DNA of 64,000 nucleotides from Pseudomonadota bacterium (lineage in GTDB: Bacteria; Pseudomonadota; Alphaproteobacteria; Rhodobacterales; Rhodobacteraceae), in contig JBCCSY010000012.1 in the NCBI GenBank assembly GCA_039199335.1, forward strand, positions 28,973 to 92,972. Reading direction: 5' to 3'. The notes below the pieces were generated by a model. That model was given only the letters and a program-made list of their open reading frames with translations, searched no databases and had not been told where the DNA came from. The stretch's first letter is position 1. Each line of letters starts with the position of its first letter. This document shows, piece after piece, positions 2,586 to 51,376 of this stretch. The translations under genes were made by a program, and so were the position numbers.

Positions 2586-4288
2586 CGCCGTAGACGCTCC
2601 AACCCGAGGACGTTGATCAGTTCCTCAAGTGTGGTGCGGCCTTCCGCGACATGGCGAAGACCTTCGACCCACATAGTTCGATAGGACGCCTTCTTGTCCG
2701 CCCGGACACGATCCAATTCGGCGGCATCAAGGGCCTCATAGACGGCGAGGCGACCGCGGAAGCCGGTATTCGAACAGGACTCGCACCCCACCGGTCGGTG
2801 CAGATGCCAGGTGTCCGGTGCGCCAAGCTCCGGATCCAGCGTCGCGATCTTGCCAAGAAGAGCCTTCGCGCGCGCGGACCCACCGCCGGTTTCGTCGGGC
2901 GCGGCGCAATGGGGGCATAGGCGCCTGACAAGGCGTTGGGCCGCGCTCATCCGCAGGACCGATGCCAGAAGGTAGTCCGGAACACCCATATCCACCATTC
3001 GGAGCGGGGCATCCACGGCCCGGTTCGTGTGCAATGTCGATAGGACGAGGTGACCGGTCATCGCGGCGCGGACGGCAAGTTCCGCCGTTTCCCCATCCCG
3101 GATCTCACCGACCATCAGGATGTTCGGATTATGGCGCAAAATCGTGCGGAGCGCGCTTGCAAAGGTGAAGCCCAGCTCTGAATTGACCTCGATCTGGACC
3201 AGACCCTCGCTTTGGATTTCGACGGGATCCTCGATCGTCATGATCTTGCGTGTGGGCGTCTTGATCGCGTTGAGCGCAGCATGGAGCGTCGTCGTCTTGC
3301 CGCTGCCTGTCGGGCCGGTAATCAGGATCAGGCCGTTGGGCTGGCGGAGTGCCTTCTTGAACGTGCCCAGCACACCATCCGGCATCTCAAGCTCGTCCAT
3401 GGCGCGCGGCGCCGTGCTGCTGTCGAGAAGGCGCAGGACCAGCGATTCACCATGGACGGTGGGGGTGGACGCGACGCGCATATCAACCTCGCGTCCGGCA
3501 AGCTTCTGCCGGATGCGACCGTCCTGCGGCAGCCGTCGCTCGCTAATGTCCATTTCGGCCAGGATCTTCAGCCGTGATACGACGCCTTGATAGATCGCTT
3601 CATCCGGCGCTTCGGCCGAGACCAGTTCTCCGTCGATCCGCAGACGGATTTGCGGGCCGCTGCCCAGCATTTCCACATGGATGTCGGTCGCGCGGGCCTT
3701 CACGGCAGTGGCGAAGAGCCGGTTCAAGAACTGCACGGTCGGCGCGTTGTTGGCGAGTTCGCGCAGACGTTCGGCGTCGAAGTCGAAAATCTCGGCGCCC
3801 GAGGCGGGAAGGTCGTCGGCCATAGCCTCGCCACTGGCCGCGGCCTTGGCCTCGACACTTCGGGCAAGGGCCGCTTCGATGTCGCGATCGGTCGCCACGA
3901 CAAGCTCCAACCCCTGCCCGAACAGCATGCGCAGGCCCGTCATGGCATGGTCGTTATAAGGGTCCGCCACCGCAAAGCGGGCCCGGTTCGGTCCGATCTC
4001 CAGGGGCGCGATGGCGTTTCGTTGCAGATAGCTGTCCGACAGTCGCGGGTCCGTCGGAAGAGAAACCGGCATGTCTGCCAGCGCGACTAGCGGCATGCCC
4101 GTTTCGCTAGCACAGGCCGCCGCCCAGGACGATTGTTGGACCAAGCCGAGACGGTCGAGCATCACGCGGATCGGCTGACCAGCCTGTCGCGCCGCGGCCA
4201 CGATCTCACGCATATCGTGGTGGTCGATACCGCCGGGCCCCAGCAGTGCCTTCGGGACCGCGCCGATCTGATCTGGCTCGCTCAACAT
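2582..4288 (-). CDS. gspE: T2SS ATPase GspE
   Basis: Walker A GPTGSGKTTT, the MVGEIRD / TGHLVLSTLHTN boxes, a tetracysteine CPHC...CESC Zn motif and an N-terminal T2SS-E_N-like domain. ATG at 4286-4288 is preceded by AAGGA. The ORF track extends to a GTG at 4450. Confidence 0.9.
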   Translation of the reverse strand: MLSEPDQIGAVPKALLGPGGIDHHDMREIVAAARQAGQPIRVMLDRLGLVQQSSWAAACASETGMPLVALADMPVSLPTDPRLSDSYLQRNAIAPLEIGPNRARFAVADPYNDHAMTGLRMLFGQGLELVVATDRDIEAALARSVEAKAAASGEAMADDLPASGAEIFDFDAERLRELANNAPTVQFLNRLFATAVKARATDIHVEMLGSGPQIRLRIDGELVSAEAPDEAIYQGVVSRLKILAEMDISERRLPQDGRIRQKLAGREVDMRVASTPTVHGESLVLRLLDSSTAPRAMDELEMPDGVLGTFKKALRQPNGLILITGPTGSGKTTTLHAALNAIKTPTRKIMTIEDPVEIQSEGLVQIEVNSELGFTFASALRTILRHNPNILMVGEIRDGETAELAVRAAMTGHLVLSTLHTNRAVDAPLRMVDMGVPDYLLASVLRMSAAQRLVRRLCPHCAAPDETGGGSARAKALLGKIATLDPELGAPDTWHLHRPVGCESCSNTGFRGRLAVYEALDAAELDRVRADKKASYRTMWVEGLRHVAEGRTTLEELINVLGLERLRR

Positions 4289-4694
4289 AAAGCCGTCCTT
4301 CTTCGCATTGGACGCGAGGTCGCAAAGGACCGTGGCAGGATGCGGGCGATTCCAAGATTTCTGGAAAATTGCGATGGTATTTGGCCAATCGCGGCAACGA
4401 TTGGGGCCAATGGCCTTGTATACAGGGCATTGATCCACTTTCGCGGACACAGAACTCCCAAATGCGGCGATGAGTCTTGCCGCATTTCATGCCGGGGCCG
4501 TGTCGATACGGCATGAGGTCAGAAGCTCTAAGTCACTCTATAGGAAGACGAAATTCTTGAAATGACGTTGCGTCCAAGCGCGTGTCCGCCGACGGCTACG
4601 ATGTGCCTCAAAGTTTCTATAAATTTGCCCGGTTCTCTTGGTCTGCCTGCGTCAGAGCCTGCCATTGCGCCAGAACCGACTGGGGAAATCGATT
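4289..4694. promoter_or_regulatory. divergent control region between gspE and the DUF1800-led operon
   Basis: 406-bp non-coding spacer, visibly AT-richer than the flanks, between two outward-facing operons. Contains a perfect 9-bp inverted repeat AAATGCGGC-N10-GCCGCATTT at 4460-4487. No promoter consensus could be assigned by eye. Confidence 0.4.
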
Positions 4695-7511
4695 ATGTCT
4701 TTTCACAATATCCGTCACGGGATCGTTGCGTCCGCCTGCCTCCTGGGAACGACCGCACTGGTCTCAGCGCAAGGAACCGAGGTTCCGGCGCCGATGCTGC
4801 CCGCAGCGTCCGAGGCAGCTGCTGCACTCCCGACGCCAGTCAGCGCCGAAGCGGATATGCGCGAGACCTTCTACCGCGTGACCGCGCCGGCCGCCGGTAC
4901 CTATGTGCTGGCGGTGCCCACGACCTTGGCCGTTCGGATCCGCGTGGATGGCGAGATTGTAGTCGATCAAACGGAGCAGCGCAGCCTCGGCTCGCAGGAT
5001 TTCACGCGGGCGCTTTTCGCGCTCAACGCCGGTGAACACGTCGTTACCGTGAGCGGCAGTGGTGCGGCCATGCGGTCTTTCGGCGACGTTCTGTTCAACA
5101 AGGTCGGTGGGCTTCCGCAGAACTTTGCTGCCGTCGCACAGGTGATCGATGGTGATGTCGCGGCACAGGTCCTGACTGCGCGCGCCCAAGCCGGGTCTGC
5201 CGCGCCGGGTCAGCCTGCGGGTGGGCAGTTCGGATCAGCAAACCGCACCCCGTTCACGATTGGCGGAAGCGGAGCGCGTGCGACCCGGATGGCAGCGAAA
5301 ACGGCTGCCGGTGGCGCTGCCTCTGCGGGCATGACGTCGCCCGCGCCGATGCAGATGGCCGGTCTCTCTCAATCGGCCGGCCGGATGGGCGGCGGTTCTT
5401 CGGGCGGCGGAAGCGCAAACGCAGATCGGGTCGCTCTTGGCGGTGGCGTTGCCATCGGTTCCGGCAGCAACAACGATAACGATGGCGGGATGCCCGTGGC
5501 TGGCAACCCGACGACCGGTGGCGGCACGCCGCCCACCAGTGGTGGCACCCCAACCGCACCGGCGCCGACCCCGCCCGCACCGACACCCAACCCCGTGACG
5601 CGTCCCGTGACGCCGATCCCGACGCCAACGTCGCCGGCGCCAACACCCACACCCACCCCCACACCGACGACACCCCCCACGACACCGCCGACCACGCCTC
5701 CGACGACACCGCCGACGACCCCTCCAACGACGCCACCGGCGCCGCCGCCAAGCGGCACCGCCTCTTCTAGCCCGCTCCTTCCGCCGGCGGATGTCGCGGT
5801 GACACAGGCCGTTCAGTTGACGGCAGGCGGAACGGCTGAAGGCGCCGTGGCCGTCTCGGGTCAGACGCTTTTCGGCAAGGTCCAGAGCCCAGAGATGTTC
5901 GACACGGTTCGCGTCCAGCTTGCCCCGTCGGGGCGCACGACGGATGTCGATGTCGGGCCAACCACCGGCCAATTCGCCGTCCGTCTCAACGCTGAAGACA
6001 TGGCCGCTGGCCCGGTTACGGTCACGTTGAGCGGGATGCTGTCCGGTAACTCCGAGGTCACCACCGAAACGGTCAGCTACGAGTTCACGCCGGGATACAC
6101 CTCTGACGGCCTCGTACAGGCGCTGTCCCGTATCTCATATGGCGCCACGCCCAACTTGTATGCGCGCGTGCAGCAGATCGGCTTCCAGGCCTACCTCGAT
6201 GAGCAACTGTCGCCGGAGACGATCAACGACTCCTTCTTCGAGTCGATGAACGCCGACGCGCTTCTGGATCGGACGACGAAGAACCGGAACAGAATGTTCG
6301 AGACGATGCGCGCGCACAACCTGGCCCATGCTGCCTATTCCGAACGGCAACTTCAGGAAGTGATGGGGTCCTTCTGGTCAAACCACTTCCATGCCTCGAA
6401 CAAGGACAGCAACATCTACGAACAGTCGATCGTCGATCGGGAATATTTCCGTGACAATGCGTTCGGCAAGTTCGGCGACCTTCTGATCTACAGCGCGGCA
6501 AGCCCGTTGATGTCGCAGTTCCTGGACAACGATCAGAGCCGCCGCGGAAACATCAACGAAAACTACGGCCGTGAGATCCTGGAGCTTCACACCGTCGGGG
6601 TGACCGCGCCCTATACCGATGATGATGTCATCGCCGTCTCGCGTGTCTTCACCGGCTGGCACTACACGCGCACGAATGAGGGCGCAGACGACGTTGCACA
6701 GACCTACGGGTTCGATTTCAAGGCCGACCGGCACGATGAAGATGACAAGGTCATCCCGTTCCTGAACACCACGATCGTCGGCCGGTCCGGTCCCGAGGGG
6801 GTTCAGGAGGGCGCAGAGCTGATCGGCATCCTGGCCAATCACCCCCTGACGATGAACTACGTCTGCGGGAAGATCGTGCAGAAGTTCGTTGCCGACCAAC
6901 CCCCCGCGGCCTTCGTCCAGACCTGCGTCGATGCCTGGGCTGCAACCGAGGGTGACAGCCGTGAAATCTTGCGCGCGATCCTTTCTCGCCCGGATTACAT
7001 CAGCACGGTCGAGTTCCAGCGCGCGAAGGTGAAGACCCCGTACGAATATGCGGCGTCGGTGATCCGGGCCCTCGGCATCTTCCCGGTTCAGGACCACAAC
7101 GTCGACTTCTACGAGCGTTTCGCCGATGCGGCCGCCAACGCCGGTTGGGTGCCGAACTACTTCCCCGCACCGACCGGTATGGCCGAAGTCGGCAGCGCCT
7201 GGACTGCGTCGGCTGGCATGATCGCGCAGTATCAGCAGGTCGTTCGGGTCGTCGACTCGAACAATGACCGCTACGGCCTGAACCTACAGGATCAAATTCT
7301 CGATGCGGGTCTTGAGACAGCCGAGGAGGTGGCTGCGTACTTCCTGGCCGTCGGTACGGGCGACCATTATCGCGGCGACGAGTTCGAGCAGCTCGTCGAC
7401 ACATTGAAGGGAGAGGACGGCATCTTCGAACCCGCCGTCCAAGATGAAGGCGCGGCTCTCCTGCGCGCGGCAACCGTGCTGGTCGTGATGCCCAGCTTCC
7501 TTCTCCAGTAA
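4695..7511 (+). CDS. secreted multidomain protein with C-terminal DUF1800 domain
   Basis: ATG at 4695 (GGGGAAA upstream) gives the Sec signal MSFHNIRHGIVASACLLGTTALVSAQ/G. Next come a ~470-aa extension with a Gly/Ser/Ala-rich low-complexity region and a Pro/Thr linker, then a DUF1800-like core (WSNHFHAS..., REILELHTVGV...). Confidence 0.8.
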   Translation: MSFHNIRHGIVASACLLGTTALVSAQGTEVPAPMLPAASEAAAALPTPVSAEADMRETFYRVTAPAAGTYVLAVPTTLAVRIRVDGEIVVDQTEQRSLGSQDFTRALFALNAGEHVVTVSGSGAAMRSFGDVLFNKVGGLPQNFAAVAQVIDGDVAAQVLTARAQAGSAAPGQPAGGQFGSANRTPFTIGGSGARATRMAAKTAAGGAASAGMTSPAPMQMAGLSQSAGRMGGGSSGGGSANADRVALGGGVAIGSGSNNDNDGGMPVAGNPTTGGGTPPTSGGTPTAPAPTPPAPTPNPVTRPVTPIPTPTSPAPTPTPTPTPTTPPTTPPTTPPTTPPTTPPTTPPAPPPSGTASSSPLLPPADVAVTQAVQLTAGGTAEGAVAVSGQTLFGKVQSPEMFDTVRVQLAPSGRTTDVDVGPTTGQFAVRLNAEDMAAGPVTVTLSGMLSGNSEVTTETVSYEFTPGYTSDGLVQALSRISYGATPNLYARVQQIGFQAYLDEQLSPETINDSFFESMNADALLDRTTKNRNRMFETMRAHNLAHAAYSERQLQEVMGSFWSNHFHASNKDSNIYEQSIVDREYFRDNAFGKFGDLLIYSAASPLMSQFLDNDQSRRGNINENYGREILELHTVGVTAPYTDDDVIAVSRVFTGWHYTRTNEGADDVAQTYGFDFKADRHDEDDKVIPFLNTTIVGRSGPEGVQEGAELIGILANHPLTMNYVCGKIVQKFVADQPPAAFVQTCVDAWAATEGDSREILRAILSRPDYISTVEFQRAKVKTPYEYAASVIRALGIFPVQDHNVDFYERFADAAANAGWVPNYFPAPTGMAEVGSAWTASAGMIAQYQQVVRVVDSNNDRYGLNLQDQILDAGLETAEEVAAYFLAVGTGDHYRGDEFEQLVDTLKGEDGIFEPAVQDEGAALLRAATVLVVMPSFLLQ
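5667..5738 (+). repeat. 12-nt tandem repeat x6 encoding (TTPP)6 inside a Pro/Thr linker
   Basis: Codon-by-codon reading gives ACG ACA CCC CCC / ACG ACA CCG CCG / ACC ACG CCT CCG / ... The wider P/T-rich tract spans about 5520-5750. Confidence 0.9.
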
Positions 7512-7538
7512 GACAGACCCTCGTCGAAAGGTGATCTC

Positions 7539-8837
7539 ATGACCACGCGTCGCGATTTTCTCAAGAACAGCGCCCTTTTCACCGCCGCCTCCATGGTGGG
7601 CGCGGCGGGCGCACCGAACTTCTCCTTTGGTCAGACGGCTGGTGGGAAGACCTACATTAAGGTGTTCATGCGCGGCGGCGCAGACGGCCTTCATCTCTTC
7701 CCGGCTGTCGGCGACCCGCTTTACTACACCTACCGGCCCGGCATCGCCATTCCGGCCCCCAACCAATCCGAGTCGGAGTCGGCCATCGACATCGGTCAGA
7801 CATATCGCGCGATGAACCCGAACTTGGCGCCGCTGATGGAGATCTGGGATGCCGGTCGAATGATGGTGTCTCCAGCGACGTTCTTCGACGGCGGGGGGCG
7901 TTCGCATTTCGACAACCAGCGGTGGATCGGAAATGGGGCACGAAACAACCTGATCGACGGATATCTCAACCGGTATCTTCAGGAATTGCCCGGTGTGAAC
8001 CATCCCGTCCGTGGCGCGGTGCTGGGTAAGACCGGCATCAGCGGAGAGCTCAAAGGGGCGCTTGCTGTGCCCGCCGTCGGTTCCGCCAATGGCTTCTCTC
8101 TGCAGAGCAACGACTTCTGCGAGGGCCAAGGCTGCCAGGATAATCAGCTTACGGAATACATGCGTGAGGTCGCCTCGCACCCGGTCGTCGAGTCTGCGGT
8201 CGAAGGCAGTGTGCGCGAGAACCAGTTGATCATGCTCGACACGATCGACGAGATCAAAGCGGCTGGTGCGGATTACATGCCCTCTGCCGGTGGCATGGAC
8301 TATTCCGGCAGCCCGCTGGGCAAAGGGCTGCGTCTTGTGGCGCAGCTGCTGAAGGCGGGTGTCCCGTTGGAAGTGGCGGCCATTGACTGGAACATTGGCT
8401 GGGATACACACTCCAACCAAATCTCGACATCGGCCCAAAGGTTTACGGATCAGGAGAAGGGCTACCACCGAAAGATGCGCGAGGGATCGCTCGACTTCGT
8501 GACCTTCTTCCGGGACATGGGCGCGCTCATGGACGATGTCGTCGTACTGGTCTGTACCGAGTTCGGACGGACCGTCGAAGAGAACGGAAGCTCGGGAACG
8601 GATCACGGCAATGCCGGCGCATGGTTCGCGTTCGGTGGTCCGACCCGACCCGGATTGGCTGCGGATGTGAGCAGCCTAGAGGAGAGAGAGCGAAACTATC
8701 TGCCGATGCGTGTCGATTACCGCGACATCGTCGCTGAGATCATGATCCGTCATATGGGCATGTCGGAGAATCTGGTTTCGACCATCTTCCCGAACCATAC
8801 CCTGACCAATCAGAACCTCTTCTCGCTGAACGCCTGA
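7539..8837 (+). CDS. Tat-exported DUF1501 family protein (sulfatase/phosphatase-like fold)
   Basis: N-terminus MTTRRDFLKNSALFTAASMVGAAG is a canonical twin-arginine motif (T-R-R-x-F-L-K). The C-terminal TEFGRT...NGSSGTDHG is typical of DUF1501. It lies 27 nt after the DUF1800 gene, the usual pairing. Confidence 0.85.
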   Translation: MTTRRDFLKNSALFTAASMVGAAGAPNFSFGQTAGGKTYIKVFMRGGADGLHLFPAVGDPLYYTYRPGIAIPAPNQSESESAIDIGQTYRAMNPNLAPLMEIWDAGRMMVSPATFFDGGGRSHFDNQRWIGNGARNNLIDGYLNRYLQELPGVNHPVRGAVLGKTGISGELKGALAVPAVGSANGFSLQSNDFCEGQGCQDNQLTEYMREVASHPVVESAVEGSVRENQLIMLDTIDEIKAAGADYMPSAGGMDYSGSPLGKGLRLVAQLLKAGVPLEVAAIDWNIGWDTHSNQISTSAQRFTDQEKGYHRKMREGSLDFVTFFRDMGALMDDVVVLVCTEFGRTVEENGSSGTDHGNAGAWFAFGGPTRPGLAADVSSLEERERNYLPMRVDYRDIVAEIMIRHMGMSENLVSTIFPNHTLTNQNLFSLNA

Positions 8838-8870
8838 CCCGACCCCTGCAAATCCGGTGATCGCTTAACA

Positions 8871-9941
8871 ATGACTGACGTGATGACACATTCCCCCGAC
8901 CGCGATCTGAACGGTCGGGGCGTTGTGCGCCAACTGCGCCGCCTACGCCTGCTGCTCGATGCCACGTTCGAGCAGATGGCACAGGAGGTGCGGCCTGTTT
9001 CGATCATGGCGGAAGCCGAGGTGATGCTGGACGCCAAAGGATGGCATGTCACGGCGGAAGATCAGACAGCGGGGCCATTCACGGCCTCGGAGGCCGTTGA
9101 TGTTCTGCGAGAGGTCGATCTGCGGGATATCGACCTTGTTCTACAAGACCGGGCTGTGTTGGATCTGTCTTTCGAACTCCCGTCAGCGCCGTTGGCGGAA
9201 CTTCGGGCGATGGTCGAGGCAGAGATCGCGTTTCATTCTCCTTTCGATCCAAGCCAGGCGGTCAGCATCTGGGCCGGAGAAGAGCAGGAGGACGGCCTTT
9301 GGTCCGTCCAGGCGGCGGTTCTTCTGAAAGCGAATGTGCAACCGTTTCTCGACGCCGCAGAAGCCGGCGATGTCCGGATCGCAAATGTCCGGCGTGAGGA
9401 TGCGGACAGTCATCCGCTGGTCGAAGGTTTGCCGATTTGGGCCGACCCTTCTGCGTCCCCGGTAACGGTCGGCAAGGGGCAGGCCAGCCTTCTCGCGCGG
9501 ATCCCAAAGATCATGCGGCCCGTGATCTTTGCTGGCGGCGCGTTCTTGGTCTCGTTTCTGGGCCTCTCGATCGTTCAAGGACAGGTACTGTCGGGTCTGC
9601 GCGCAGAGGCCGATGGCCTTCAGGGTCAGATGGCACGCACGGCCAGCCTTCAGGCCGCCAGTCGCGACTTCGCCGTTGAACGCGCGGCCAGCGCGGAGCG
9701 GATTTCCCTCGTCGCAGAGTTGACCGCGCTTCTGCCGGACGACACCTGGTTGGATCAGTTCACGATCAAAGGCGACGAGTTGATCATCGTCGGATTCGGT
9801 CCGTCGGCTGCCGCCGTGACAGAGCTTCTGTCGATCCAGGCTGGGCTGACCGATGTGCGCTACGGCTCACCGGTGTCGCGGGACAACAGTCAGAACCTGG
9901 AGCGCTTCAGGATCGTCGCGACCTTGGGGGCGGCGGAATGA
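8871..9941 (+). CDS. GspL/PilN-like T2SS assembly protein
   Basis: 356 aa with a cytoplasmic N-domain, a single TM segment (IMRPVIFAGGAFLVSFLGLSIV), a coiled segment, then a PilN/GspL-like periplasmic end (DDTWLDQFTIKGDELIIVGFGPSAAAVTELL). Position is consistent with the gsp locus. Confidence 0.6.
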   Translation: MTDVMTHSPDRDLNGRGVVRQLRRLRLLLDATFEQMAQEVRPVSIMAEAEVMLDAKGWHVTAEDQTAGPFTASEAVDVLREVDLRDIDLVLQDRAVLDLSFELPSAPLAELRAMVEAEIAFHSPFDPSQAVSIWAGEEQEDGLWSVQAAVLLKANVQPFLDAAEAGDVRIANVRREDADSHPLVEGLPIWADPSASPVTVGKGQASLLARIPKIMRPVIFAGGAFLVSFLGLSIVQGQVLSGLRAEADGLQGQMARTASLQAASRDFAVERAASAERISLVAELTALLPDDTWLDQFTIKGDELIIVGFGPSAAAVTELLSIQAGLTDVRYGSPVSRDNSQNLERFRIVATLGAAE

Positions 9942-10474
9942 CCGGCCAGCTCGTCTTTTCCGAGACCCGCACGATCCAAAGGATGCGCCAAGGCCTTCTG
10001 GTGGCGTCTGGCGTGATCCTGGCGCTGATCGTCATGCTGGCCTGGATGAAAGTCGCCGGTCAGCGCAGCGAGATGGCGGAACTTCGCGGCTATGTCGCCA
10101 TGGCGGAGACGCGGATGGAGGGCGCAATCGCCCCCGAAGCCGCCCAGTTCTATTCCGGCGCGACGCTGCAACTTGCCCAGACCGAAGTGCAGACCGACCT
10201 GCAGGAGATCGCGGGCGGCCATGGGAGCAGGATCGAGACGGTACGGACCGACCAGATCGAAGAGAAGGGTGGCAACATCCGCCTGGGCTTGATCGTCAAC
10301 GGCGTCGTGCCCGAAGCAGCCGTCGGCGCCTTCTTGGCCGAGATCGCCGGACATCAGCCCGCCCTCATCGTCGAGGACCTCGCCCTGCGTCGGGCGCGCA
10401 GTTCCGGCATTGGCCAGCGCGATCAGCGGATGATCTCTTTCCAGATGACCCTGAGCGGATACGCCACGCGATGA
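9938..10474 (+). CDS. GspM-like T2SS protein
   Basis: 178 aa with a short cytoplasmic N-terminus, one TM segment (LLVASGVILALIVMLAWMKV) and a periplasmic domain. ATGA overlap with the gspL-like gene. Assignment rests mainly on topology and position. Confidence 0.5.
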   Translation: MTGQLVFSETRTIQRMRQGLLVASGVILALIVMLAWMKVAGQRSEMAELRGYVAMAETRMEGAIAPEAAQFYSGATLQLAQTEVQTDLQEIAGGHGSRIETVRTDQIEEKGGNIRLGLIVNGVVPEAAVGAFLAEIAGHQPALIVEDLALRRARSSGIGQRDQRMISFQMTLSGYATR

Positions 10475-38373: not shown

Positions 38374-39126
38374 TCACGTGACCACGAGGGCAGTCGCGAG
38401 TGATGCGGTGCTGGCAGCAGCGGCGGCAATGGACGTGGCTGGCCGTTTTTTGATCCATGCTCCTACGACGATGCCAGCGAGACCCCAGAAGGCCGAAGAG
38501 GCGTAGACCCATGACGTGGTCCAAACTGACAGAGTGGTCACGACAAGACAGGCGGCAGCGATGAGCGGGACCGCGAACCTTGTCTGACGAGGGTCGAGGG
38601 GCGCGCGACAGAGAACTAGGGTCGAGGACAGGCTTGCGAAGACGGCAACGGATAGCCATCCGGCGAAGAAATAAAGGGGCGCTGCACCGAGCCAATAGGC
38701 TATGCCGTAAAGCTGCGTGACGAAAGACTGAAGCTTGGCGAGCAGCGCGACCGCAAGGGCGAGCTCGAGGATGATCAGGAATACGCTTGGCCATTTGAAA
38801 CCATAGCGCGGCACATAGGCTTCCCACGCGATGTTTCCCGCAAACAGTGCGGCGGCGAGCCAGCCGACACTTCGCAGATATGGATCGTCGAGATTCTCCG
38901 GCAAGGCGTGCCAGATCGCGAAGACGATGCAGGAGCCAAAGATGATGAGCCAGATGGCGAAGAAGGGTCCGAAGGGCACGACAAGCGTGTCGAGCGCCGC
39001 GGATCTGCCTGAGATCGTGTGGTCCCACTTTCGTATTTCGGGCCAGTAGGCGACGAATGCCTGCCCGACGGCAAGAACGAGAAGAAGGATGGCGCGCACC
39101 CCGTCGGCTGAGACATAGTCTTGCAT
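38374..39126 (-). CDS. hypothetical polytopic membrane protein
   Basis: 250 aa with about 7 hydrophobic segments, Trp/aromatic-rich. Divergent from a TetR gene. No family recognised. Confidence 0.6.
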   Translation of the reverse strand: MQDYVSADGVRAILLLVLAVGQAFVAYWPEIRKWDHTISGRSAALDTLVVPFGPFFAIWLIIFGSCIVFAIWHALPENLDDPYLRSVGWLAAALFAGNIAWEAYVPRYGFKWPSVFLIILELALAVALLAKLQSFVTQLYGIAYWLGAAPLYFFAGWLSVAVFASLSSTLVLCRAPLDPRQTRFAVPLIAAACLVVTTLSVWTTSWVYASSAFWGLAGIVVGAWIKKRPATSIAAAAASTASLATALVVT

Positions 39127-39857: not shown

Positions 39858-40376
39858 TCAGCCGTGGCGGTGCGATTGCGGAAGGGCGCTCATGGGGAAG
39901 GGGCCGCAGGGATTGGTGAGTTGCGGTTGCACGCGCAAGGGCGTGTCGGGGTCGATCCCGCTTTCGTCGATGAAGATGCCGTTCACACAGATATCCTGCG
40001 CCCGGTTGCCGCCGTTGAAGCCGAAGCCCGGATTGCCGCAATCATTGGCATATCCGTTGGCGTTCCATTCCTGATAGGTGTCGTTTTCGCGAAAGCCGCC
40101 CATGGGAAATTCCAGCCGGTCGGCATCGAAGCGCAGGGTCCAGGATGTCCCCTCGGTCGCGTCGCGCATGGACCATTTGCCGAGGAAGGCATCGTCCTGC
40201 CAGCCCATGATCTCGAACCCCACGAGGTCGTCCTCGGTCAGAACGCCCTGGGCGCCGCCGGGCACCGTGATCCAGCCCTCGATGCGGTAGCCCTCGTCCC
40301 CCCGCCAGCAAAAGGCGTAGGTGCTGGCCTGGGCCGGGGCCGCGAGCGCGGCAAAGAGCAGGACGGCGCGGATCAT
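39858..40376 (-). CDS. hypothetical secreted protein
   Basis: Signal peptide MIRAVLLFAALAAPAQA/S. ATGA overlap with the folC stop, so it is the last gene of the accD-folC operon. No recognisable domain. Confidence 0.55.
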   Translation of the reverse strand: MIRAVLLFAALAAPAQASTYAFCWRGDEGYRIEGWITVPGGAQGVLTEDDLVGFEIMGWQDDAFLGKWSMRDATEGTSWTLRFDADRLEFPMGGFRENDTYQEWNANGYANDCGNPGFGFNGGNRAQDICVNGIFIDESGIDPDTPLRVQPQLTNPCGPFPMSALPQSHRHG

Positions 40377-41635
40377 ACGTTTTCCTGCAACACCTTTCCG
40401 GCAAGGTAAAGCGAGCCGCAGATCAGGATGCGGGCCTCGGGCGACGCGGCGACGATACGATCGACGGCCGCCGATAGATTGGGCGCCGTCTCTGCGGCGA
40501 TGCCTGCTTGACGCGCAGCCTCGCTGGTTTCGGCGGCGCTGAGCGTGTTCGTCTCGCCGGGGATGTCGACGGCCTGGAGCGCTGCGGCCTGGCCCGCCAA
40601 CGGACGCAGGAAGCCCGCGGCGTCCTTCGTTCGGAGCATCCCGCAGATCAGGTGCAGCGGGCGGTCCGGCAATCGAGAGAGACCTTCGGCTAAAGCCTTG
40701 CCAGCAGCGGGATTATGACCGCCATCGAGCCAGATTTCAGCCGGGTGCGCACGGGCGACCAGGGGGCCGCGCGACAGGTGCTGCAGCCGGGCGGGCCAGT
40801 GGGCGTCGCGCAACGCCGCCTCGGCCCCGTCGGCCCGGTCCAGGGCCCGCAAGGCGGCGATGGCGGCCCCGGCATTGGCCACCTGATGGGCGCCGATCAG
40901 GCGGGGCATGGGCAGGTCCATCAGGCCGGTTTCGTCCTGGAAGATCAGGCGCCCATGCTCCTCGCTGACATGCCAGTGTTGTCCATGGACCTGCAACGGT
41001 GCGTTGAGGCGTGCGGCACGATATTCGATCACGTCCAGCGCGGGTTCGGTCTGCGGGCCGACGATACAGGGCACGCCTGGCTTGAGGATCCCGGCCTTTT
41101 CGGCGGCGATGGCCTCGATCGTGTCGCCCAGGAACGCCTCGTGATCCATGGCGATGGGGGTGATGACGGTGAGCCGGGGATTGACGACATTGGTGGCGTC
41201 GAGCCGCCCGCCCAGGCCGACCTCCAGCAGGGTCCAGTCGGCGCGCGTGCGGGCGAAGGCCAGGAGCGCGGCGCAGGTGGTGATCTCGAAATAGGTGATG
41301 GGGGCGCCGCCATTGGCGGTCTCGCATTCCTCCAACAGACCGATCAGGGCATCGTCCCGGATCAGGTGGCCCGCCACGCGGATCCGTTCGTTGAAGCGCG
41401 CCAGATGGGGAGAGGTGTAGGCGTGGCAGCTTTCGCCCAGCCCCTCCAGCCCGGCGCGCAGCATGGCCAGGGTGGAGCCCTTGCCGTTGGTGCCCGCGAT
41501 ATGGACCACCGGCGGCAGCTGCGTTTCGGGATGGCCTAGCGCGTCCAGCAGGCGGTGGACGCGGTCGAGGACCAGGTCGATGACCTTGGGGTGCAAGCTC
41601 ATCAGACGGTCGAGGACCGCGTCGGGCGCGGTCAT
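40373..41635 (-). CDS. folC: dihydrofolate synthase / folylpolyglutamate synthase
   Basis: P-loop VHIAGTNGKGST and a Mur-ligase-like middle and C-domain. Classic accD-folC pairing. Confidence 0.9.
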   Translation of the reverse strand: MTAPDAVLDRLMSLHPKVIDLVLDRVHRLLDALGHPETQLPPVVHIAGTNGKGSTLAMLRAGLEGLGESCHAYTSPHLARFNERIRVAGHLIRDDALIGLLEECETANGGAPITYFEITTCAALLAFARTRADWTLLEVGLGGRLDATNVVNPRLTVITPIAMDHEAFLGDTIEAIAAEKAGILKPGVPCIVGPQTEPALDVIEYRAARLNAPLQVHGQHWHVSEEHGRLIFQDETGLMDLPMPRLIGAHQVANAGAAIAALRALDRADGAEAALRDAHWPARLQHLSRGPLVARAHPAEIWLDGGHNPAAGKALAEGLSRLPDRPLHLICGMLRTKDAAGFLRPLAGQAAALQAVDIPGETNTLSAAETSEAARQAGIAAETAPNLSAAVDRIVAASPEARILICGSLYLAGKVLQENV

Positions 41636-42561
41636 TCCTCCGCCGGCTCCGGCGTCGGTTCGGCCGGTTGGGTGGTTTCCACCGGCTTTGGCAGGTCGCC
41701 GCGGATCACGGGGCCGGCGCCCGTCAGCATCCGGATCACGGTGGCCAGTTCGTCCTTCAGCTCGCCGCGCGGCGTCACGCGGTCGAGCATGCCGTGATCC
41801 AGCAGATACTCGGCCCGCTGGAAGCCCTCGGGCAGCGTCTCGCGGACGGTCTGTTCGATGACGCGGGGACCGGCGAAGCAGATCAGCGCGTTGGGCTCGG
41901 CGATCTGGACGTCGCCCAGCATCGCGTAGGAGGCGGTGACGCCGCCGGTGGTCGGATGGGTCAGGACGACGATATAGGGCAGGCCCGCTTCCTTCAGCAT
42001 CTCCACCGCCACCGTGGTGCGCGGCATCTGCATCAGGGACAGGATGCCTTCCTGCATCCGCGCGCCCCCGGCGGCGGAGAAGACGATCAGCGGCAGCTTG
42101 CGCGCCAATGCGCGTTCGGCCGCAGCGACCATGGCATTGCCGACATACATGCCCATGGACCCGGCCATGAAGCCGAAATCCTGGCAGGCAGCGACGACGG
42201 GCGTGCGGTGGACTTCCCCTTCGGCCACCAGCATCGCTTCATGGGCGTCGGTGGCCTTGCGGGCCTCGCGCAGGCGGTCGGGATAGCGCTTCTGGTCACG
42301 GAATTGCAGCGGATCGGCGATGGGATCGGCGACCGGCACTTCGGTGAAGACGCCGCCATCGAAGAGCGCCTCGAAGCGTTCGCGGGCTGGAATATACATG
42401 TGGTGGCCGCAATTGGTGCAGACCCGCTGATTGTCCTTGAGTTCGCGGTGGAACAGCATCGTCCCGCATTCGTCGCACTTGGTCCAAAGGTTGTCCGGCA
42501 CTTCCCGGCGCGAGAAGAGCGAGTTGATCTTCGGACGGACGTAATTGCTGATCCAGTTCAT
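41632..42561 (-). CDS. accD: acetyl-CoA carboxylase carboxyltransferase beta subunit
   Basis: MNWISNYVRPKINSLF, the Zn ribbon CDECGTMLF...CTNCGHH, and GGARMQEG. Confidence 0.95.
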   Translation of the reverse strand: MNWISNYVRPKINSLFSRREVPDNLWTKCDECGTMLFHRELKDNQRVCTNCGHHMYIPARERFEALFDGGVFTEVPVADPIADPLQFRDQKRYPDRLREARKATDAHEAMLVAEGEVHRTPVVAACQDFGFMAGSMGMYVGNAMVAAAERALARKLPLIVFSAAGGARMQEGILSLMQMPRTTVAVEMLKEAGLPYIVVLTHPTTGGVTASYAMLGDVQIAEPNALICFAGPRVIEQTVRETLPEGFQRAEYLLDHGMLDRVTPRGELKDELATVIRMLTGAGPVIRGDLPKPVETTQPAEPTPEPAEE

Positions 42562-43114
42562 CGGACACCCTTGCTATCGCGTGCCGAGATAGGCGGACGG
42601 GCAGGTATTTGCAATTCGTGCCGCGCGGTGACGGCATGAGCGGGGATCGCGGCTAGCTTGGCTCAGATATCAGTCGTCGGGCGACTGGCATGCTGGCTGA
42701 CGGCGTGCCCGGTCGGCGCGGGGGCGCGTGTCCTGTGGGCCGTTCGAAGGTCGGCTTCGTGAGCCAAGATGACAGATGCTGCGGAACGGATGAACGACCG
42801 CTTCGGGTGTCTTAGATGGGTCTCGGCCCGCCAGCTGCCCTGTTTCAAATCGCAAGAACCACCCTTTTGGGATAGACGTTGTGTCCCGTGGCGACGTGCC
42901 GCGAGCGTACGCCATCGGCAACGGGGCCTCATCTGCTGCTCTCCTAGACGACGACCGCGCGGGGCTGCCGGATCATCCTGCCTATGATCCGCTTTCGCCC
43001 TTTCAGCGCCCGCGCACCGTGCCCACGCAGGCCGTTGCGTAGTCCCTTTGATTGCGCGCGGGTGGGGGCGGCGGAGACCCTAGAGAGCGCACCACCTATC
43101 CGGAGACGCCCCCT

Positions 43115-46100
43115 ATGAGCGAGCCCAAAATCGAGACTAACATCGCCACGGGCTGGGTCTGGGACGCGACTATGGATGACGCGGCCTTCGGCTTCGACGT
43201 CAGCGGCCATGCCGAGAATCCCGAAGGCGAGGGCGGCCTGCGCTCAGCCGACGTTCCGGCCGCTGACAATCCCACCGTGGACCCCCGGCTGAATAGCGCG
43301 GTGGACGCGCTCGGCGCGCGCTTGACGACGATCGCGCAAGAGAACCCGGCACGCCTGCGGCGCCTGTTGGGTGCGGCGTTCGGTGTGGACCTGCGCGATC
43401 CACAGAGCGCGGCGCGCATCGATGCGCTCGTGGCGCGCATCGCGGGCGGCGACGGGCCCTTGGGCAACCTAGCCCTGCCCGCAATTCGCCTTGTGGGCGA
43501 CGTGCTGCCCGAGGGACGTTGGGGCGCCTACGACGCGGGGGCCGAGGGCGGGGCAGGCGCGATCCTCCTCCACCACGACCTCGTGGGCGATCCGTCCACC
43601 CTGCCCGACGGCGCCCCCAGCTTGGACGCGGTGCTCGCCGAGGAGATGGGCCATCACTTCGACCACGTGCTCAACGGCGGCCCTGGCGGCCCTGGAGACA
43701 CACCCGGCGACGAGGGCGAAGCGTTTGCGCTGCTGCTCGCGGGGGCCGATCCGAACGACCCCGCCGTGCGGGCGACACGGGGGGAGGACGATTGGGGGCA
43801 GTTGGGGGATGGGACATGGGTGGAGTTCTCCAATGGGGAGACCATCGCCGCCAACGGCGAGGACGTGGAGACCTCCGATGCGGATGGAACAAGCGCCGAC
43901 CCCGAAGATGACCCGGACGTCGAACTGATCGATACCGTATCGGTGGAGGTACTTGAAGGAACCACTACGGGCGCAAACACCTACGTGCTGAGCGCGCCGG
44001 TCTACAAACGCGACACCGGGGGGCCGCTGAGCCCGTTCCGGGGCTACTTCACCGTCGACGCGAACGGCAACGAGGTGCCGCTGTCTGTCGTGTCCCCCGC
44101 CGCGGCGGAGGGCAGAACGATCGATGGCCTGCGCTCCGGCGCGTTCGAGGCACCGCAGATCGATTTCTACGAGAACACCCATAGGCTACGCGCTGGTGCC
44201 CAAGAGAACCGCAACAGCCCCCTGCGCGACGCCAATGCGCTGATCCCCAACGCCCGAGCCGACAGCACCGATGGTGCTGAGCTCTTCCACGCCCTCGACA
44301 ACGCTGGCTTCGACACCGATCCCGTGACGGTTCTGACCTCCAACGATAACCCTGAGTTCAGGCGGGGCTACGAGGACGCGCGTGACGGTCGGATCGTGCT
44401 AAACTGGCTGGAAGGTGCACAGATCGGCCTCGACCTCTTCGACAACGTATCTCCCCTCATCCAGGCGTCGCGGAACCGGGGGCTGGTTCGGACGCAGGAC
44501 TTCGACCCCGACGTCGGCGTGAAGCGATCAAGATCGGGCGGAAATTCGGACAGCGATTATATCACACCCGATCAAGATATTGCCAATACACCCACAAACT
44601 TTGACGGGGATCAGTTTGACACGAACGGCGGTTATATAACTCGGACAAATGATAGCGGAAGAAGAAGTCATTTTTCGCTCGACCTTGTGAATGGAACGTT
44701 CGGCGGCCTTTCGATCGTCGATGGTCCACCACCCTTCGTTCAAGCCGCAATCGCTGGGGACACGCCGGGAAGCAAAATCGCCGATGCGGTCGACTGGTAC
44801 TATCGCACCGACGATGACGCGACGAATACTCTCGGGGTTAGTAGGGAAGAAGCCGAGGATTTCATCTACGAGATGGAGAATGAGCCGCCCTATGCACAGT
44901 CGCCGGAAGCGCAGGAGTTCTACGCCGACTTCCAGAGTGCCGTTGGGGTCGCCGGTGCGTCCGTCGTGCATGCGCAGGACGCGAACGGCAACTACGTCGA
45001 ACTGTCGGACCCCCAGTTGGCGACCATCCTACGACTTCAACCGCAGGTTGATCTATCGTCGGATCAACAACAGCGACTGCAAGAGATTTGGGTCGAAGAG
45101 TTCGGTCCCGATGTCGAGTACGTCCCCTACGATGACCAAGACCTCGCGGACCTCCAGGCTCTGCTAAGTCCCGGGGCATCCGCGTCCTTCGACACGGTGA
45201 CGGATTGGTCGGCAGCGATCGGAAGAACGCTTTCGAACATGAGCAGCGGGTTGGGGGGCGCGGACGGGATTGCACCCGAACTGTCGGTGACGCTTGTCCG
45301 GAACGGGGACCAATGGCAGGCAGTGCCCAACCTCGCTGTGGGCGAGCCCGGCTCAATCGACACGAGCCTCAATTTCGGGGGTGCAGGCCAAGACGCCCTG
45401 GGCGGCGATGAGTTCTATGTCATTCACACGCATCCCGTGAATGACGGCGCGAATTTCGCTTTCGGATTATCATCCGGCGATTTCAGCGATACTCGCAAGG
45501 ACTATCTTGGCCTGCAGAAGCCCGTGACCATCGTCTCCGTGCAAGACAATTATCCGGATGCATTATCTTTTGCCCGTTTTGACAGTGATAGCGACGCACC
45601 GTCTCAGTTTGGTATCATAATCGGGAATGCGGATGATTTTGGCGGATCAATTCCAGATGTGATCCAACGTCCCTCAACATCCGATGCCCCACATAACGGT
45701 GTAGATGGTCTAGGCAACGATTTTATCCAGACCCGTGATCTTGATGGGATAGGAAAACTTCACGTTTATCGCCGAGACGGGAGTGAGGCGGTCCAGTTCT
45801 TCATTGAGCCGGACGGAACGGCACTGGCGCTAGAGGGCTTCGACGGTGCGGACCAGACAGCGCTTTCGGAGGCCGCGGGAGAAATACTGACCGATCTCCT
45901 GGATCCCGAAGCCGTCCAAGACGCCCTAGGCGACATAGATGCGTTGAATGGGTTGATCAACGAGGTGGAGGAGAGGCTCGAAGGCGATCTTCCCGAAATC
46001 AAGGATGATCTGCGGGACGGGGATCAGATTAGCCAGCACATCTTCTTGCAAGAGAACGGCATTACTCCCGACGGCGAGTACGCCATCGCCTCCAACGGTA

Positions 46101-49100
46101 CGGTCTCCGGGATAGGTCTCGTTTCCTTCCTCCCCGAGCCGGGCGAGGACGGCGTCTTCGCGGTGAACGAGAACGGACTGTTCGAGAACCTTGAGGACAT
46201 CATTCCGCGCGACGACGAGATCATCACCGGCCCCTTCCCACCCGAGCCCGTCTCGATCCTCACGCCTGACCAGCAAGCGTTCGCGGAGGACTACGACGCC
46301 TTTATCGCCGCGGGTGACACGCCCGAGGTGGCGTCGAGCAAGGCGTACGCGAACTACCAGATCGCCGTGCTCGACGGCGAGGGTGAGGGGTTCACGAACG
46401 ACGCGTACTTCGACGGGCGGGTGTCGGCGCGCGCAGATGATGCGCCGCCGATCGACGACGCGAGCCGTCCGGCCTACAACACCCTCTACGGCTACTACGC
46501 AGGGCTCGTCACGGAGGGGGCGGCGGGCGAGCCGGGGGCGCGCGCGACCCTCGAAGCCGCTGGCGTCCAGTACAACGAGGACGGTACGATCGATGAGACC
46601 GAGGGGTCGGTCGTGGCGCAGATCTCCAGAGCGGCCTTCGACATGGCCGTCGATCCAGCCATTGCAGCCGCCGTGCAGGGCATTTTCGACAACCCTGAAT
46701 TGTCGGCGGCCGAGAAGGACGCGGCGATTTCGGATCTGGTGGTGTCTGGGGGTGTGCCGGGCGCATCGGGGGATGGGAACCTGATCCTGGGGCAGCCGCG
46801 CGAGGAGGTATATCGTCAGCTTGATGAGGCCATCGGCAACGCTTTCGACGAGTCCAGCGAGAACTTCAGCCCGACGACGGGTTTCTTGCTGACGGGTGTG
46901 CGCAACATCATCCAATTTGCCGAAGATGAGGGTTTAGACAGCGCGTTCTTCGCTGATCTTCTGGACGGCAATTCACCGGCCTTAACCAATCTTCTCGGTC
47001 GGATCGGAGATGGGGAATATGCAGCCTTCGGCGAACTTGTTCCGGAGGTGGCGGAAGGGCTGAGGGATGCCGGTCTCGATCTGAGCGAGACAGATATTCT
47101 CAGCCTGACGGGGGCTTCTCTGGGGGGAGAGGCCGTTCGGCTCATCGGGTTGCAGGCGAATGACGGCGAAGGGGACGACGCGCTCGTCACAAGTGGCATC
47201 CTTGCTGAGGCGACCTCGGAGATCTGGGTGGAAGCCATCCGAGGGTCGGTGCGCGACGTCCCCGTGAGGGATCGGAATGGCGATATCGTAGTCGACGAAT
47301 TCGGCGAGGCCGTGACCGAGGAAGTCAGGGTCGATCTGACTGTTCAGATCGGCGACATCGTCGCCGACGCCGGCAATGAGCTTCTGAACTACTTCGGGAC
47401 CAAGTATGAAGAGCCGGCCCTGATCCAGGTCGGCGCTGGGGGGGAGTTCGGCTGGGAACTCTTCAAGGTCCTCGACGGCAGGCAAGGCGGCAGCGTGAAT
47501 AGCGCGGTCCAGGCTGGCGGTGCGTTCATCGCGTCATTCTTCGACGAAGAGACGGCGGCCGACATACGGGAAGGTTTCCGGGTCGGCGGCCAGATCTATG
47601 CCCTTGCTTCGGGCTCGACCGGCATCGGTGGAGCGGGCGTCGTCGCCATCGATGTCGTCGAGCTGTTCGGCGTGGATGTTTCGCCAGAAGTCGAATTCGC
47701 AGCCACGACAATCGCCCACTTGGCAAGCGGGCCCGTCGGCTGGGTCGCGCTGGGCGCCGATATCCTGGGTCGTATCCTTAGCATCGATACTTGGACGGTC
47801 AGCACACCCTATTGGGTGGATTTTGACGCCGACGGCGATTTGCTGATGGACGATGACAGCTTCATCGACACAGATTTCGGGACCAACTTCTTCCGTGAGG
47901 TCCATACCCTCGGCGGTGAGATCCGCTACGAGGTGAACGGGGTGAACCCGGACCTTTTGGAGGAGGCCACGTTCGAGCTGAAGTCGGATCCAGTGGTCGG
48001 TATCAGCGTGTCCTACGATTCTTCTTATGGGTATTCAGCAGCCCTGACTGTCAACGGCGAGAGGATCGATGGAAACTTTAGAACACCGTCGAGGGGGCGA
48101 GGTGGTGGAGACCCCACATCCGGAACCTTCACATCGCACGACGGCTCCATCTCGGTCGCCGTAGATATCTCCCATAGTGACGACGGCGGCGGAACGACGT
48201 ACCGCCTCAGGGATGGTGAAGCGGATCAGTTCGCGCCCAACTACCGGATCGAGATCGACGCCGATTATGGCGACCTCAATCCTGAAACCGGGCCGGAGAA
48301 TGTCTCGGAGACTGTTGGTCTGACGCGGGAGCAGTACGACGCGCTTGTCGTGGAGATCGGAGCGGATGGGCCGGTTACGCTGCAAGGGGACGATCCGTTG
48401 CTGAATGCCGGTCCGGGCTTCCCGCCTGGCACGCCCACCGGAAGCGTCTTGGCGGAAGTCATGGGCGGTCTCCAGGTCGACTTCAACAGCGACCGTCGCG
48501 TGGCCAATATCTACCAGTACCGCGATGTGAACGGCGACGGGAACGTCGACCTGATGCGATATGGGATCAATCAGGGCGGCGATGGCCTGAATGCCGGCGA
48601 CGAGCGCTATGAGATCACCCTTCTGGACGAAAACCGCGAACCGCTGGCGATCTACGATGCCGACGGCAATCGCCTGCAGAACCTGCCGACGATCAAGACA
48701 GCGACCGAGGAGGAGGCCGTCATGATCGGCGGGCTCACACCCTACCTCTTCCGTTGGGCCACAGCCCGGCCGGAATTGGGGGCGGCGGGACGCGATCCGG
48801 TTTCCATCTACAATGCCGTGGAGGAAGCTGGCCATCTCGATGAGATGATCGAGTTGCGCGATCTCGACTACCAGGCCAGCCAGACGGCGCAGACGCTTTC
48901 ACAGTTCGGCGATGCCGATGCGCTGGCGTCCGACGACCCCGATGTCTCGCAGGCTGCGGCCAACGACTTCGCCGCTAACTTGACGGCCGATCCCGAGACG
49001 GCACCGTTGCTCGACATCTTTGGCGGGATCGGAGACGCTGACCGCATTGAGGAGCTCCGCGCCGAGCTGGGCCTGTTCGACACCGCCGCCTATAGCGCAG

Positions 49101-51376: not shown

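Follow-up and report, generated by a model that had tools for sequence, protein, structure and literature searches.

The window analysed here is a 64,000-nt stretch of contig JBCCSY010000012.1 from a Rhodobacteraceae bacterium, and the subject of this study is its giant + strand open reading frame (ORF) at 43115-51376. Amino acid (aa) numbers are counted from the ATG at 43115, and nucleotide (nt) positions are those of the window. The product, hereafter the giant protein, is identical to protein AAF919_14970 of a metagenome-assembled genome, which is annotated at NCBI as a hypothetical protein. A search of 1.84 billion representative proteins yielded only four relatives, namely P0002, P0003/L016, P0004 and P0006. 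The gene runs from two N-terminal domains, N1 and N2, through a JAB/JAMM-like domain and a central module to a C-terminal lectin array, with the following features:

43102-43105, + strand: Shine-Dalgarno-like GGAG, 9 nt ahead of the ATG, read from the sequence
43115-51376, + strand: giant ORF, 8.26 kb, 2753 aa plus stop; product acidic, Cys-free and without a signal peptide
43115-43264, + strand: aa 1-50, variable N-terminus predicted to be disordered (predicted local distance difference test, pLDDT, <40; nonsynonymous divergence, dN, 0.90)
43265-43855, + strand: domain N1, aa 51-247, predicted zincin-like fold (AlphaFold2 model, pLDDT >90)
43928-44464, + strand: domain N2, aa 272-450, common to the N-termini of other signal-less proteins
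44465-45259, + strand: aa 451-715, a low-confidence low-complexity stretch followed by a helical region; sole homologue P0002
45260-45829, + strand: JAB/JAMM-like alpha/beta domain, aa 716-905, proposed from a motif, an AlphaFold2 model and Foldseek
45425-45481, + strand: JAMM-type metal-site motif, H771-T-H773-x12-S786-S-G-D789
45830-46138, + strand: acidic linker, aa 906-1008, long helices, varying among homologues, at the boundary between high and low synonymous divergence (dS)
46139-48166, + strand: central module, aa 1009-1684, with a helical part, Gly-rich amphipathic helices and a DADGD-containing beta part
47624-47767, + strand: helix-GPxGW-helix, aa 1504-1551, candidate membrane-interacting hairpin from a hydropathy ranking
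48167-49234, + strand: aa 1685-2040, beta-rich, then a helical linker
48524-48550, + strand: EF-hand/dockerin-like loop DVNGDGNVD, aa 1804, from a motif scan
49250-49630, + strand: MMBL domain 1, aa 2046-2172 (PF01453, expectation value, E, 9.6e-7)
49748-50092, + strand: MMBL domain 2, aa 2212-2326 (PF01453, E 1.1e-3)
50144-50488, + strand: MMBL domain 3, aa 2344-2458 (PF01453, E 2.7e-7)
50534-50878, + strand: MMBL domain 4, aa 2474-2588 (PF01453, E 4.2e-6), near-canonical site QDNGDLVLY
50966-51349, + strand: MMBL domain 5, aa 2618-2745, placed by alignment, no Pfam match alone
51350-51373, + strand: C-terminal tail ...AAGKIGRAEQNA, without the aromatic dyad of Llp bacteriocin tails

The maximal open frame of the giant gene, 43052-51376, is uninterrupted, and an earlier note on this DNA was right in describing a single 8.26-kb ORF with a good Shine-Dalgarno sequence and no export signal at its N-terminus. 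The stop codon that precedes ATG 43115 is only 21 non-hydrophobic codons away, which rules out a signal peptide missed 5' of the start. Residues 1-50 contain neither a hydrophobic core nor a twin-arginine motif, and Sec signal, Tat signal and transmembrane segment are all absent from the whole giant protein. The protein is ~290 kDa with an isoelectric point of 4.05, contains 17.8% Asp plus Glu, as extreme as the same note had claimed, and has 0.6% Lys and no Cys. At the Cys content of 22 neighbouring genes (0.79%), a protein of 2753 residues would be free of Cys with a P of ~4e-10. The top 19-residue hydropathy window reaches 1.70, with Asp and Glu inside the window. The S41 protease and the gamma-glutamyl transpeptidase encoded nearby, both clearly exported, share this acidity and low Lys content. 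The composition thus argues, indirectly, for an extracytoplasmic life of the giant protein. The GC content at third codon positions (GC3) is typical for the genome, and a simple promoter scan found no promoter-like site near the gene. Terminator and tRNA scans of its surroundings likewise gave nothing informative.

Motif scans of the giant protein found no HExxH anywhere, as previously stated, and no match to the RTX nonapeptide GGxGxDxUx. The earlier note had counted one isolated GGxGxD and no RTX array; the array is indeed absent and GGAGQD is present at aa 755 (nt 45377), but a second motif, GGSGSD, lies at aa 2105. No Ig-like or cadherin-like Pfam match was obtained, and internal repeats are confined to the lectin region. 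B_lectin is the sole Pfam family of the giant protein, with no Pfam match in aa 1-2040, and a PDB sequence search gave no match outside the lectins; the claim that no characterised family matches over the full length is borne out. Sub-threshold matches to PuhC (NCBIfam) and to PQQ_2, RAMA, DUF1521, 3D and tRNA_int_end (Pfam) were set aside as beta-repeat or chance similarity.

Residues 2041-2753 form five tandem bulb-type (MMBL/B_lectin) domains, so that the C-terminal 700 aa are a lectin array that the text of the earlier note had missed. With the giant protein scanned in tiles and domain by domain against Pfam PF01453 (gathering cut-off 32.4 bits), the tile aa 2081-2530 scored 61.3 bits and the tile aa 2341-2753 scored 46.2 bits, while domains 1-4 each matched alone, with E values from 1.1e-3 to 2.7e-7. 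Fifteen subdomain motifs, three per domain, align over the five domains, all of which end in LW. In PDB sequence searches the array matched pyocin L1, putidacin L1, a mycobacterial lectin and plant agglutinins. Domain 4 matched the M. smegmatis lectin 4oit and pyocin L1, and the pyocin L1 alignment covers aa 2526-2693. The sole exact QxDxNxVxY is QWDGNLVIY in domain 5 (aa 2682-2690; nt 51158-51184). This domain is 36% identical to the single lectin of L016, which keeps QADGNLVIY.

The beta-rich and linker region ahead of the lectins shows 36% identity in the L016 relative, with DVNRDGNPD there. In the giant protein the corresponding region includes the single dockerin/EF-hand-like loop that had been pointed out before, DVNGDGNVD at nt 48524, and DFDADG is a further Ca-binding-like loop. 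A motif of the form 'Y..ANP.L...G.....HY...G..E', without a Pfam family match, precedes the lectins at aa ~1990-2020 (~49080-49175). The same 'Y..ANP.L...G' type of motif recurs several times after the lectin in L016 (9466-10065).

Although no HExxH is present, the absence of a metalloprotease-type marker reported earlier is misleading, as aa 716-905 combine a JAMM motif with JAB-fold matches and the zincin-like N1 carries EExxH. The candidate catalytic Glu of the JAB-like domain is E722, and E722, H771, H773, S786 and D789 are all invariant in P0002. In the AlphaFold2 model, strand 767-772 ends at HxH and helix 787-791 begins at SxxD. The four top Foldseek matches of this region are all BubCD (E 6e-3 to 6e-2, probability 0.54-0.96), the best with E 6e-3 and probability 0.96 and the other three with E 9e-3 to 6e-2; the MPN proteins Prp8, CSN and BRCC36 are also among the matches, at E ~0.5-1. 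The motif equals the Tox-JAB-2 signature 'E, H[ST]H, S, D' (PMC3482391). Pfam DUF4329 (Tox-JAB-2) does not match the giant protein, and a PDB sequence search with the JAB region gave nothing usable. Compared with P0002, the dN/dS of aa 716-905 is 0.074, the lowest in the giant protein.

Homologues of N1 number ~40 among the 1.84 billion representative proteins (phmmer), and the conserved polar residues are common to them. The family conserves GAY...EExGHHxD...GDEG, in which EExxH, kept throughout the family, replaces HExxH (E176-E177-x-x-H180 in the giant protein). It always lies near the N-terminus of proteins without a Sec signal. The N1 model places strands at 123-153 and helices at 170-187 and 200-208. 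Searched against PDB, the N1 profile aligned the edge strand and HExxH helix of the M48 peptidase 3c37 (E 0.2, not significant), and Foldseek gave deuterolysin 1eb6 (E 0.07, TM-score 0.42, not significant). On these weak matches N1 may be read as a zincin-like domain with an altered metal site. Its relatives come from marine or seaweed-associated taxa such as Granulosicoccus, and also from cyanobacteria; some carry Ig-like or RTX-like segments. N1-protein loci in other genomes include L014 11029-12126 and L008 9602-12963. In Phycisphaerales the N1-domain protein adjoins a DUF1521 protein, and an Oleiphilaceae genome has an N1-DUF4214 fusion with an FGE-sulfatase-like gene after it. The N1-protein neighbourhoods in other genomes revealed no consistent partner and no secretion gene. 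N2 was matched by phmmer in P0010, P0015, P0026, P0027 and P0033, at 32-36% identity; these proteins have Pro-rich linkers and varied C-termini.

The central module is 30% identical to P0006 over 739 aligned columns, and aligns in part with P0004 (giant aa 1444-1684) and with P0003/L016. The turn motif GP[VI]GW is conserved in its relatives. When 19-residue windows were ranked by hydropathy in the giant protein, P0002, P0004 and P0006, the helix-GPxGW-helix region contained the first and third most hydrophobic windows of the giant protein, and windows ranking among the top four of P0004 and P0006 fell in the same conserved region. This hairpin, aa 1504-1551, may have a membrane role. Foldseek matches for aa 1005-2060 (E >1, including alpha-pore-forming toxins at probability 0.01) were dropped as noise.

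The closest relative, P0002 (L001), is 80% identical to the giant protein. Its gene call ends at 8135 of L001; by tblastn the same frame runs on (8135-8426) to the equivalent of giant aa 2753, so the 'missing' fifth lectin of P0002 is no true architectural difference but reflects either a stop codon in frame or a faulty assembly. The gene of P0003/L016 is frameshifted, lies on a contig of 2x coverage and adjoins a Tn3 transposase fragment; it encodes N1, a different middle, the central module, the region 1712-2040 and a single lectin, whose site is canonical. A 99-aa gene after L016 was considered as an immunity gene and rejected, being the frameshifted continuation of the L016 relative. P0004 consists of N1, a different middle and the end of the central module, and P0006 carries the central module. 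P0004 and P0006 differ over most of their length and share an essentially identical C-terminal stretch of ~130 aa (…EREMTFSERHIEVDG[FY]ADNRETETFG…DLGLDYELSTEWKA); they probably arose as paralogues or by recombination, in one organism or in close relatives. Where the giant protein has N2 through the JAB-like domain, P0003 and P0004 show matches to Tlde1_dom (Pfam E 9e-5 and 6e-4) and YkuD. Tlde1 itself has an L,D-transpeptidase fold and acts on peptidoglycan as a type VI effector (PMC9638812). As the slot of the JAB-like domain can hold a Tlde1-like domain instead, the family gives the impression of a constant chassis fitted with interchangeable enzymatic modules.

Other searches added little to this set. 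A word-indexed protein search with the full protein returned only the protein itself and one relative; with the central-module profile it returned only P0003, and with the lectin array nothing. As the last two queries missed the giant protein's own database entry, these null results are uninformative. No relatives came from two scans of metagenome contigs, one made with conserved central-module peptides and the other with aa 1440-2060, Pfam searches of eighteen relatives gave stray or sub-threshold matches only, and PDB sequence searches with the central-module profile and with P0004 gave nothing usable.

The giant gene is under purifying selection: against P0002, dN/dS is 0.20 overall and 0.07-0.19 in most domains, over dS values of 0.3-1.8. 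The dS itself is a mosaic, 0.9-1.8 in aa 1-1008 and 0.28-0.44 in aa 1009-2600, with the change at the acidic helical linker (aa 906-1008). Because the two parts lie ~threefold apart, they appear to have different histories, indicating recombination between lineages within the gene.

The neighbourhood was surveyed by Pfam scans of the main ORFs in the 64-kb window. Upstream of the giant gene lie the divergent accD (41632-42561, - strand) and folC, and the housekeeping genes around the locus include those for an AFG1 ATPase, an SDR and regulators of the TetR and LysR types. The scans detected no ABC/MFP/TolC, two-partner, type VI secretion or immunity-like gene, in agreement with the earlier note that the protein has no dedicated partner genes. 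Its view that the protein is not of RTX or LapA type also stands, with no nonapeptide array, no Ig- or cadherin-like repeats and no linked type I genes. For ~760 bp downstream there is no credible gene. Small downstream ORFs were rejected as immunity genes for their Arg-/Pro-rich, atypical composition, a toxin-antitoxin remnant excepted. This remnant and a recombinase fragment make up the mobile debris that had been placed downstream:

52138-52512, - strand: XRE/HigA-like antitoxin ORF, 124 aa, assigned by eye from the translation
52510-52750, + strand: serine recombinase (resolvase) C-terminal fragment, pseudogene, covering Pfam Resolvase positions 102-144 only

In the first of these, the C-terminal 90 aa are antitoxin-like and the first ~25 aa (MLHVFEKKAQKTPKRDLDLA...) resemble the C-terminus of a Gp49/HigB-type toxin, so that the ORF may derive from a toxin-antitoxin pair that decayed or became fused. 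The second sits in a spurious long ORF (51739-53352, + strand) that holds the C-terminal third of a recombinase and a helix-turn-helix, the real part being ~52510-52750. Within the giant gene, GC is only 55-57% between 44.4 and 46.2 kb, whereas the flanks have 63-70%. Horizontal acquisition of the gene, which the earlier note had inferred, is plausible on circumstantial grounds only, these being the GC dip, the mobile debris and the relative beside a Tn3 fragment.

A set of genes resembling those for type II secretion (or for a type IV pilus) occupies 83-10474 of the window, 33-43 kb upstream of the giant gene:

83-493, - strand: pseudopilin with N-methylation motif
1320-2585, - strand: GspF-like gene
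2582-4450, - strand: GspE-like ATPase
4638-8837, + strand: DUF1800/DUF1501 gene pair, interrupting the set
9938-10474, + strand: type II secretion system protein M, subtype b

The set is probably unrelated to the giant protein, as such a system needs Sec or Tat signals and the giant protein has neither. Elsewhere in the window, the ORFs at 38374-39126, 39858-40376 and 57750-58922 (all - strand; 250, 172 and 390 aa) have no Pfam match, and the last overlaps the over-extended start of an ilvD-type dehydratase ORF (58387-60663), whose Pfam domain starts at residue 212.

To explain these features, we lean, with considerable reserve, towards the giant protein being a secreted, lectin-targeted, self-translocating modular toxin of an undescribed family. 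The five bulb-type lectins would bind a mannose- or rhamnose-type glycan on the target surface, most likely the lipopolysaccharide or exopolysaccharide of competing bacteria, and possibly an algal or host glycan. The central module (aa 1009-1684), via its acidic amphipathic helix-GPxGW-helix, would then engage the target membrane and help the N-terminal part across. The N-terminal half would be the payload, a JAB/JAMM-like metallo-(iso)peptidase, and the zincin-like N1 may process or release it. The toxin itself could leave the producing cell via an unlinked type I system or by lysis. No immunity gene would be needed if specificity lay in the lectin-glycan match, as in lectin-like bacteriocins. 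Most LlpA-type bacteriocins likewise have no signal peptide and no immunity gene, and how they are released has yet to be established (PMC6240691). With five MMBL domains in the protein and Tlde1-like domains in its relatives, the labels 'glycan binder' and 'bacteriocin-like' in the earlier note were reasonable.

Several points weigh against a toxin of this kind. No route of export was found: the giant protein has no RTX array, recognisable C-terminal type I signal, PAAR, MIX or two-partner marker, and there is no linked transporter, holin or lysis gene within the window. No immunity gene was found, which is unusual for an enzymatic antibacterial toxin. The JAB and zincin assignments are sub-threshold, with no Pfam JAB or peptidase family match to the giant protein. 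The AlphaFold2 model behind both Foldseek matches has a mean pLDDT of 56, with 35-84 in the JAB-like region and low confidence in the S786/D789 loop, and N1 may be inactive as an enzyme, since Glu replaces the first His of HExxH. For the central module there was neither a Pfam nor a PDB match and no homology to a known translocation domain; AlphaFold2 prediction of aa 1005-2060 from five sequences gave an unusable pLDDT of 39.6, leaving the module without a structural model, and its hydrophobic segments reach only 1.3-1.7 on the Kyte-Doolittle scale and include acidic residues. Fourteen of the 15 lectin subsites are degenerate. Lastly, the Tlde1-like evidence comes from the relatives and not from the giant protein.

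The main rival, which we consider rather unlikely, is a non-toxic multivalent lectin adhesin or matrix protein for mannose-rich surfaces such as algal walls, exopolysaccharide or biofilm, in which the peptidase-like domains would serve maturation, release or matrix remodelling rather than killing. Five tandem lectins would provide the multivalency; the acidic, Cys-free, giant and signal-less make-up resembles that of type I-secreted adhesins; and the loops DFDADG and DVNGDGNVD, the missing immunity gene and the marine, seaweed-associated (Granulosicoccus) and cyanobacterial N1 relatives, some with Ig-like or RTX-like segments, would all fit. However, an adhesin would be expected to look different in other respects, as there is no Ig- or cadherin-like stalk, no retention module, no cell-wall or outer-membrane anchor, no RTX block and no linked type I system. 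The sister proteins also carry a Tlde1-like antibacterial effector domain, and the strongest constraint falls on the JAB-like domain and not on the lectins.

We think it improbable that an unlinked, contact-dependent machine of type VI or a similar kind delivers the giant protein as a cargo effector, with N1 and N2 as loading or adaptor domains. N1 and N2 are always found near the N-terminus of signal-less proteins with variable downstream parts, and the Tlde1-like cargo of the relatives is typical of type VI effectors. Yet no PAAR, VgrG, Rhs, MIX, FIX or DUF4123-adaptor signal was found in the giant protein and no type VI secretion or immunity gene in the window. Its size of 290 kDa and the lectins arrayed at its C-terminus also suit a diffusible receptor-binding toxin better than a spike-loaded one. 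The term 'contact-dependent' used in the earlier note finds no support.

Two further explanations appear very remote. An oversized LlpA or LlpB, whose lectins would bind lipopolysaccharide and BamA and whose C-terminal peptide would block BAM, with the N-terminal 2000 aa as accessory, is in line with the tandem MMBL domains, with pyocin L1 and putidacin L1 among the best PDB and NCBIfam matches, and with the lack of a signal peptide and immunity gene seen in most LlpAs. The tail motif that defines Llps is [aromatic/hydrophobic]-x-[aromatic/hydrophobic]-x-[aromatic/His] (bioRxiv 10.64898/2026.09.25.754295). The giant protein is not an Llp, because it scores 65.2 bits with the NCBIfam hidden Markov model LLB_putidacin (NF033557) against a cut-off of 275 and its tail, NTAAGKIGRAEQNA, has neither this motif nor the aromatic dyad; moreover, 74% of it is non-lectin and conserved under selection, whereas Llps comprise 1-2 lectin domains only. 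Equally far-fetched is a non-functional or cytoplasmic relic, a decaying horizontally acquired gene, for which the degraded mobile genes in the flank, the lack of a promoter-like site and the rarity in databases could speak, since the 8.26-kb frame is intact, dN/dS stays low over the whole dS range and GC3 is genome-typical.

Returning to the lectin-targeted toxin, a more far-reaching version of it is that the giant protein represents a new class of Gram-negative, Sec-independent and immunity-less giant toxins, in which lectins select the target through its surface glycans, a self-translocating, family-specific module takes the N-terminal part through the target envelope and the exchangeable cargo acts on envelope isopeptide or L,D-peptide bonds. 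The cargo would be an extracellular JAB/JAMM isopeptidase in the giant protein, the first secreted JAMM weapon, and a Tlde1-like L,D-transpeptidase fold in its sisters, and the whole would be a large-clostridial-toxin-like bacteriocin with a new translocation module. We regard this combination as decidedly doubtful.

Three quarters of the 290-kDa giant protein match nothing curated, yet they are under purifying selection. The lectin part is ordinary; the other 2040 aa are uncurated domain families, and no description of the architecture was found. N1, N2 and the central module are found again in marine bacteria and cyanobacteria, in proteins that lack a signal, and N1 (EExxH...GDEG), a well-populated, confidently foldable and uncurated family, deserves a description of its own. 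If the giant protein works in the proposed way, it would add a new self-delivering chassis to the bacterial protein toxins, extend lectin-guided killing beyond the small LlpA proteins and offer a testable case of a JAB/JAMM domain acting outside the cell. If it is an adhesin, it would represent a new surface-attachment architecture in marine Pseudomonadota, a lectin array with built-in peptidases.

Compared with known systems, the JAB-like domain resembles JAB/JAMM metallopeptidases (BubC of BubCD, Rpn11, AMSH) in having, as modelled, HxH at a strand end, SxxD at the start of the next helix and a Glu upstream. BubCD of Citrobacter is a JAB peptidase-E1 fusion, whose N-terminal JAB/JAMM peptidase uses E28, H91, H93 and D104. 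In contrast, the giant protein has a longer HxH-SxxD spacer (12 residues), no Pfam JAB match, no ubiquitin-like partner and, probably, an extracellular setting. N1, as modelled, would share with gluzincins and aspzincins (M48, M35 deuterolysin) an edge strand, an active-site-like helix and a later helix starting at a conserved acidic residue (GDEG), but carries Glu in place of the first His of HExxH.

As for polymorphic toxin systems (Zhang et al. 2012), the likeness lies in exchangeable toxin-type domains on a conserved chassis, the Tox-JAB-2 signature, recombination and the Tlde1/YkuD-like domains of the relatives (cf. Tox-LD-peptidase/Tlde1). The variable slot of the giant protein, however, is in its N-terminal half and not at the C-terminus, and a recognised trafficking domain, Rhs or filamentous repeats and a neighbouring immunity gene are all lacking.

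The layout of large ABCD toxins is established. Reviews of these toxins are available (PMC11124097; bioRxiv 10.1101/2023.08.14.553178). Like TcdA/TcdB of Clostridioides and Mcf1 of Photorhabdus, which have 2400-2900 aa and no signal peptide, the giant protein would place, by analogy, N-terminal enzyme(s) and a peptidase before a hydrophobic delivery middle and C-terminal carbohydrate- or receptor-binding repeats. Pfam, PDB sequence and Foldseek searches found no match in it to the glucosyltransferase, cysteine protease, delivery or CROP domains of these toxins. It differs from them in having bulb-lectin repeats instead of CROPs, JAB- and zincin-like candidates instead of a cysteine protease, and no holin neighbour. 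With LlpA, pyocin L1 and LlpB it shares MMBL domains, the QxDxNxVxY sugar site and the lack, usual among them, of a Sec signal and an immunity gene, whereas these bacteriocins are ~28 kDa, with a tail that mimics a beta-signal, and the giant protein has its five lectins after 2040 aa. In summary, the giant protein is a member of neither the large ABCD toxins nor the lectin-like bacteriocins, and its logic resembles both.

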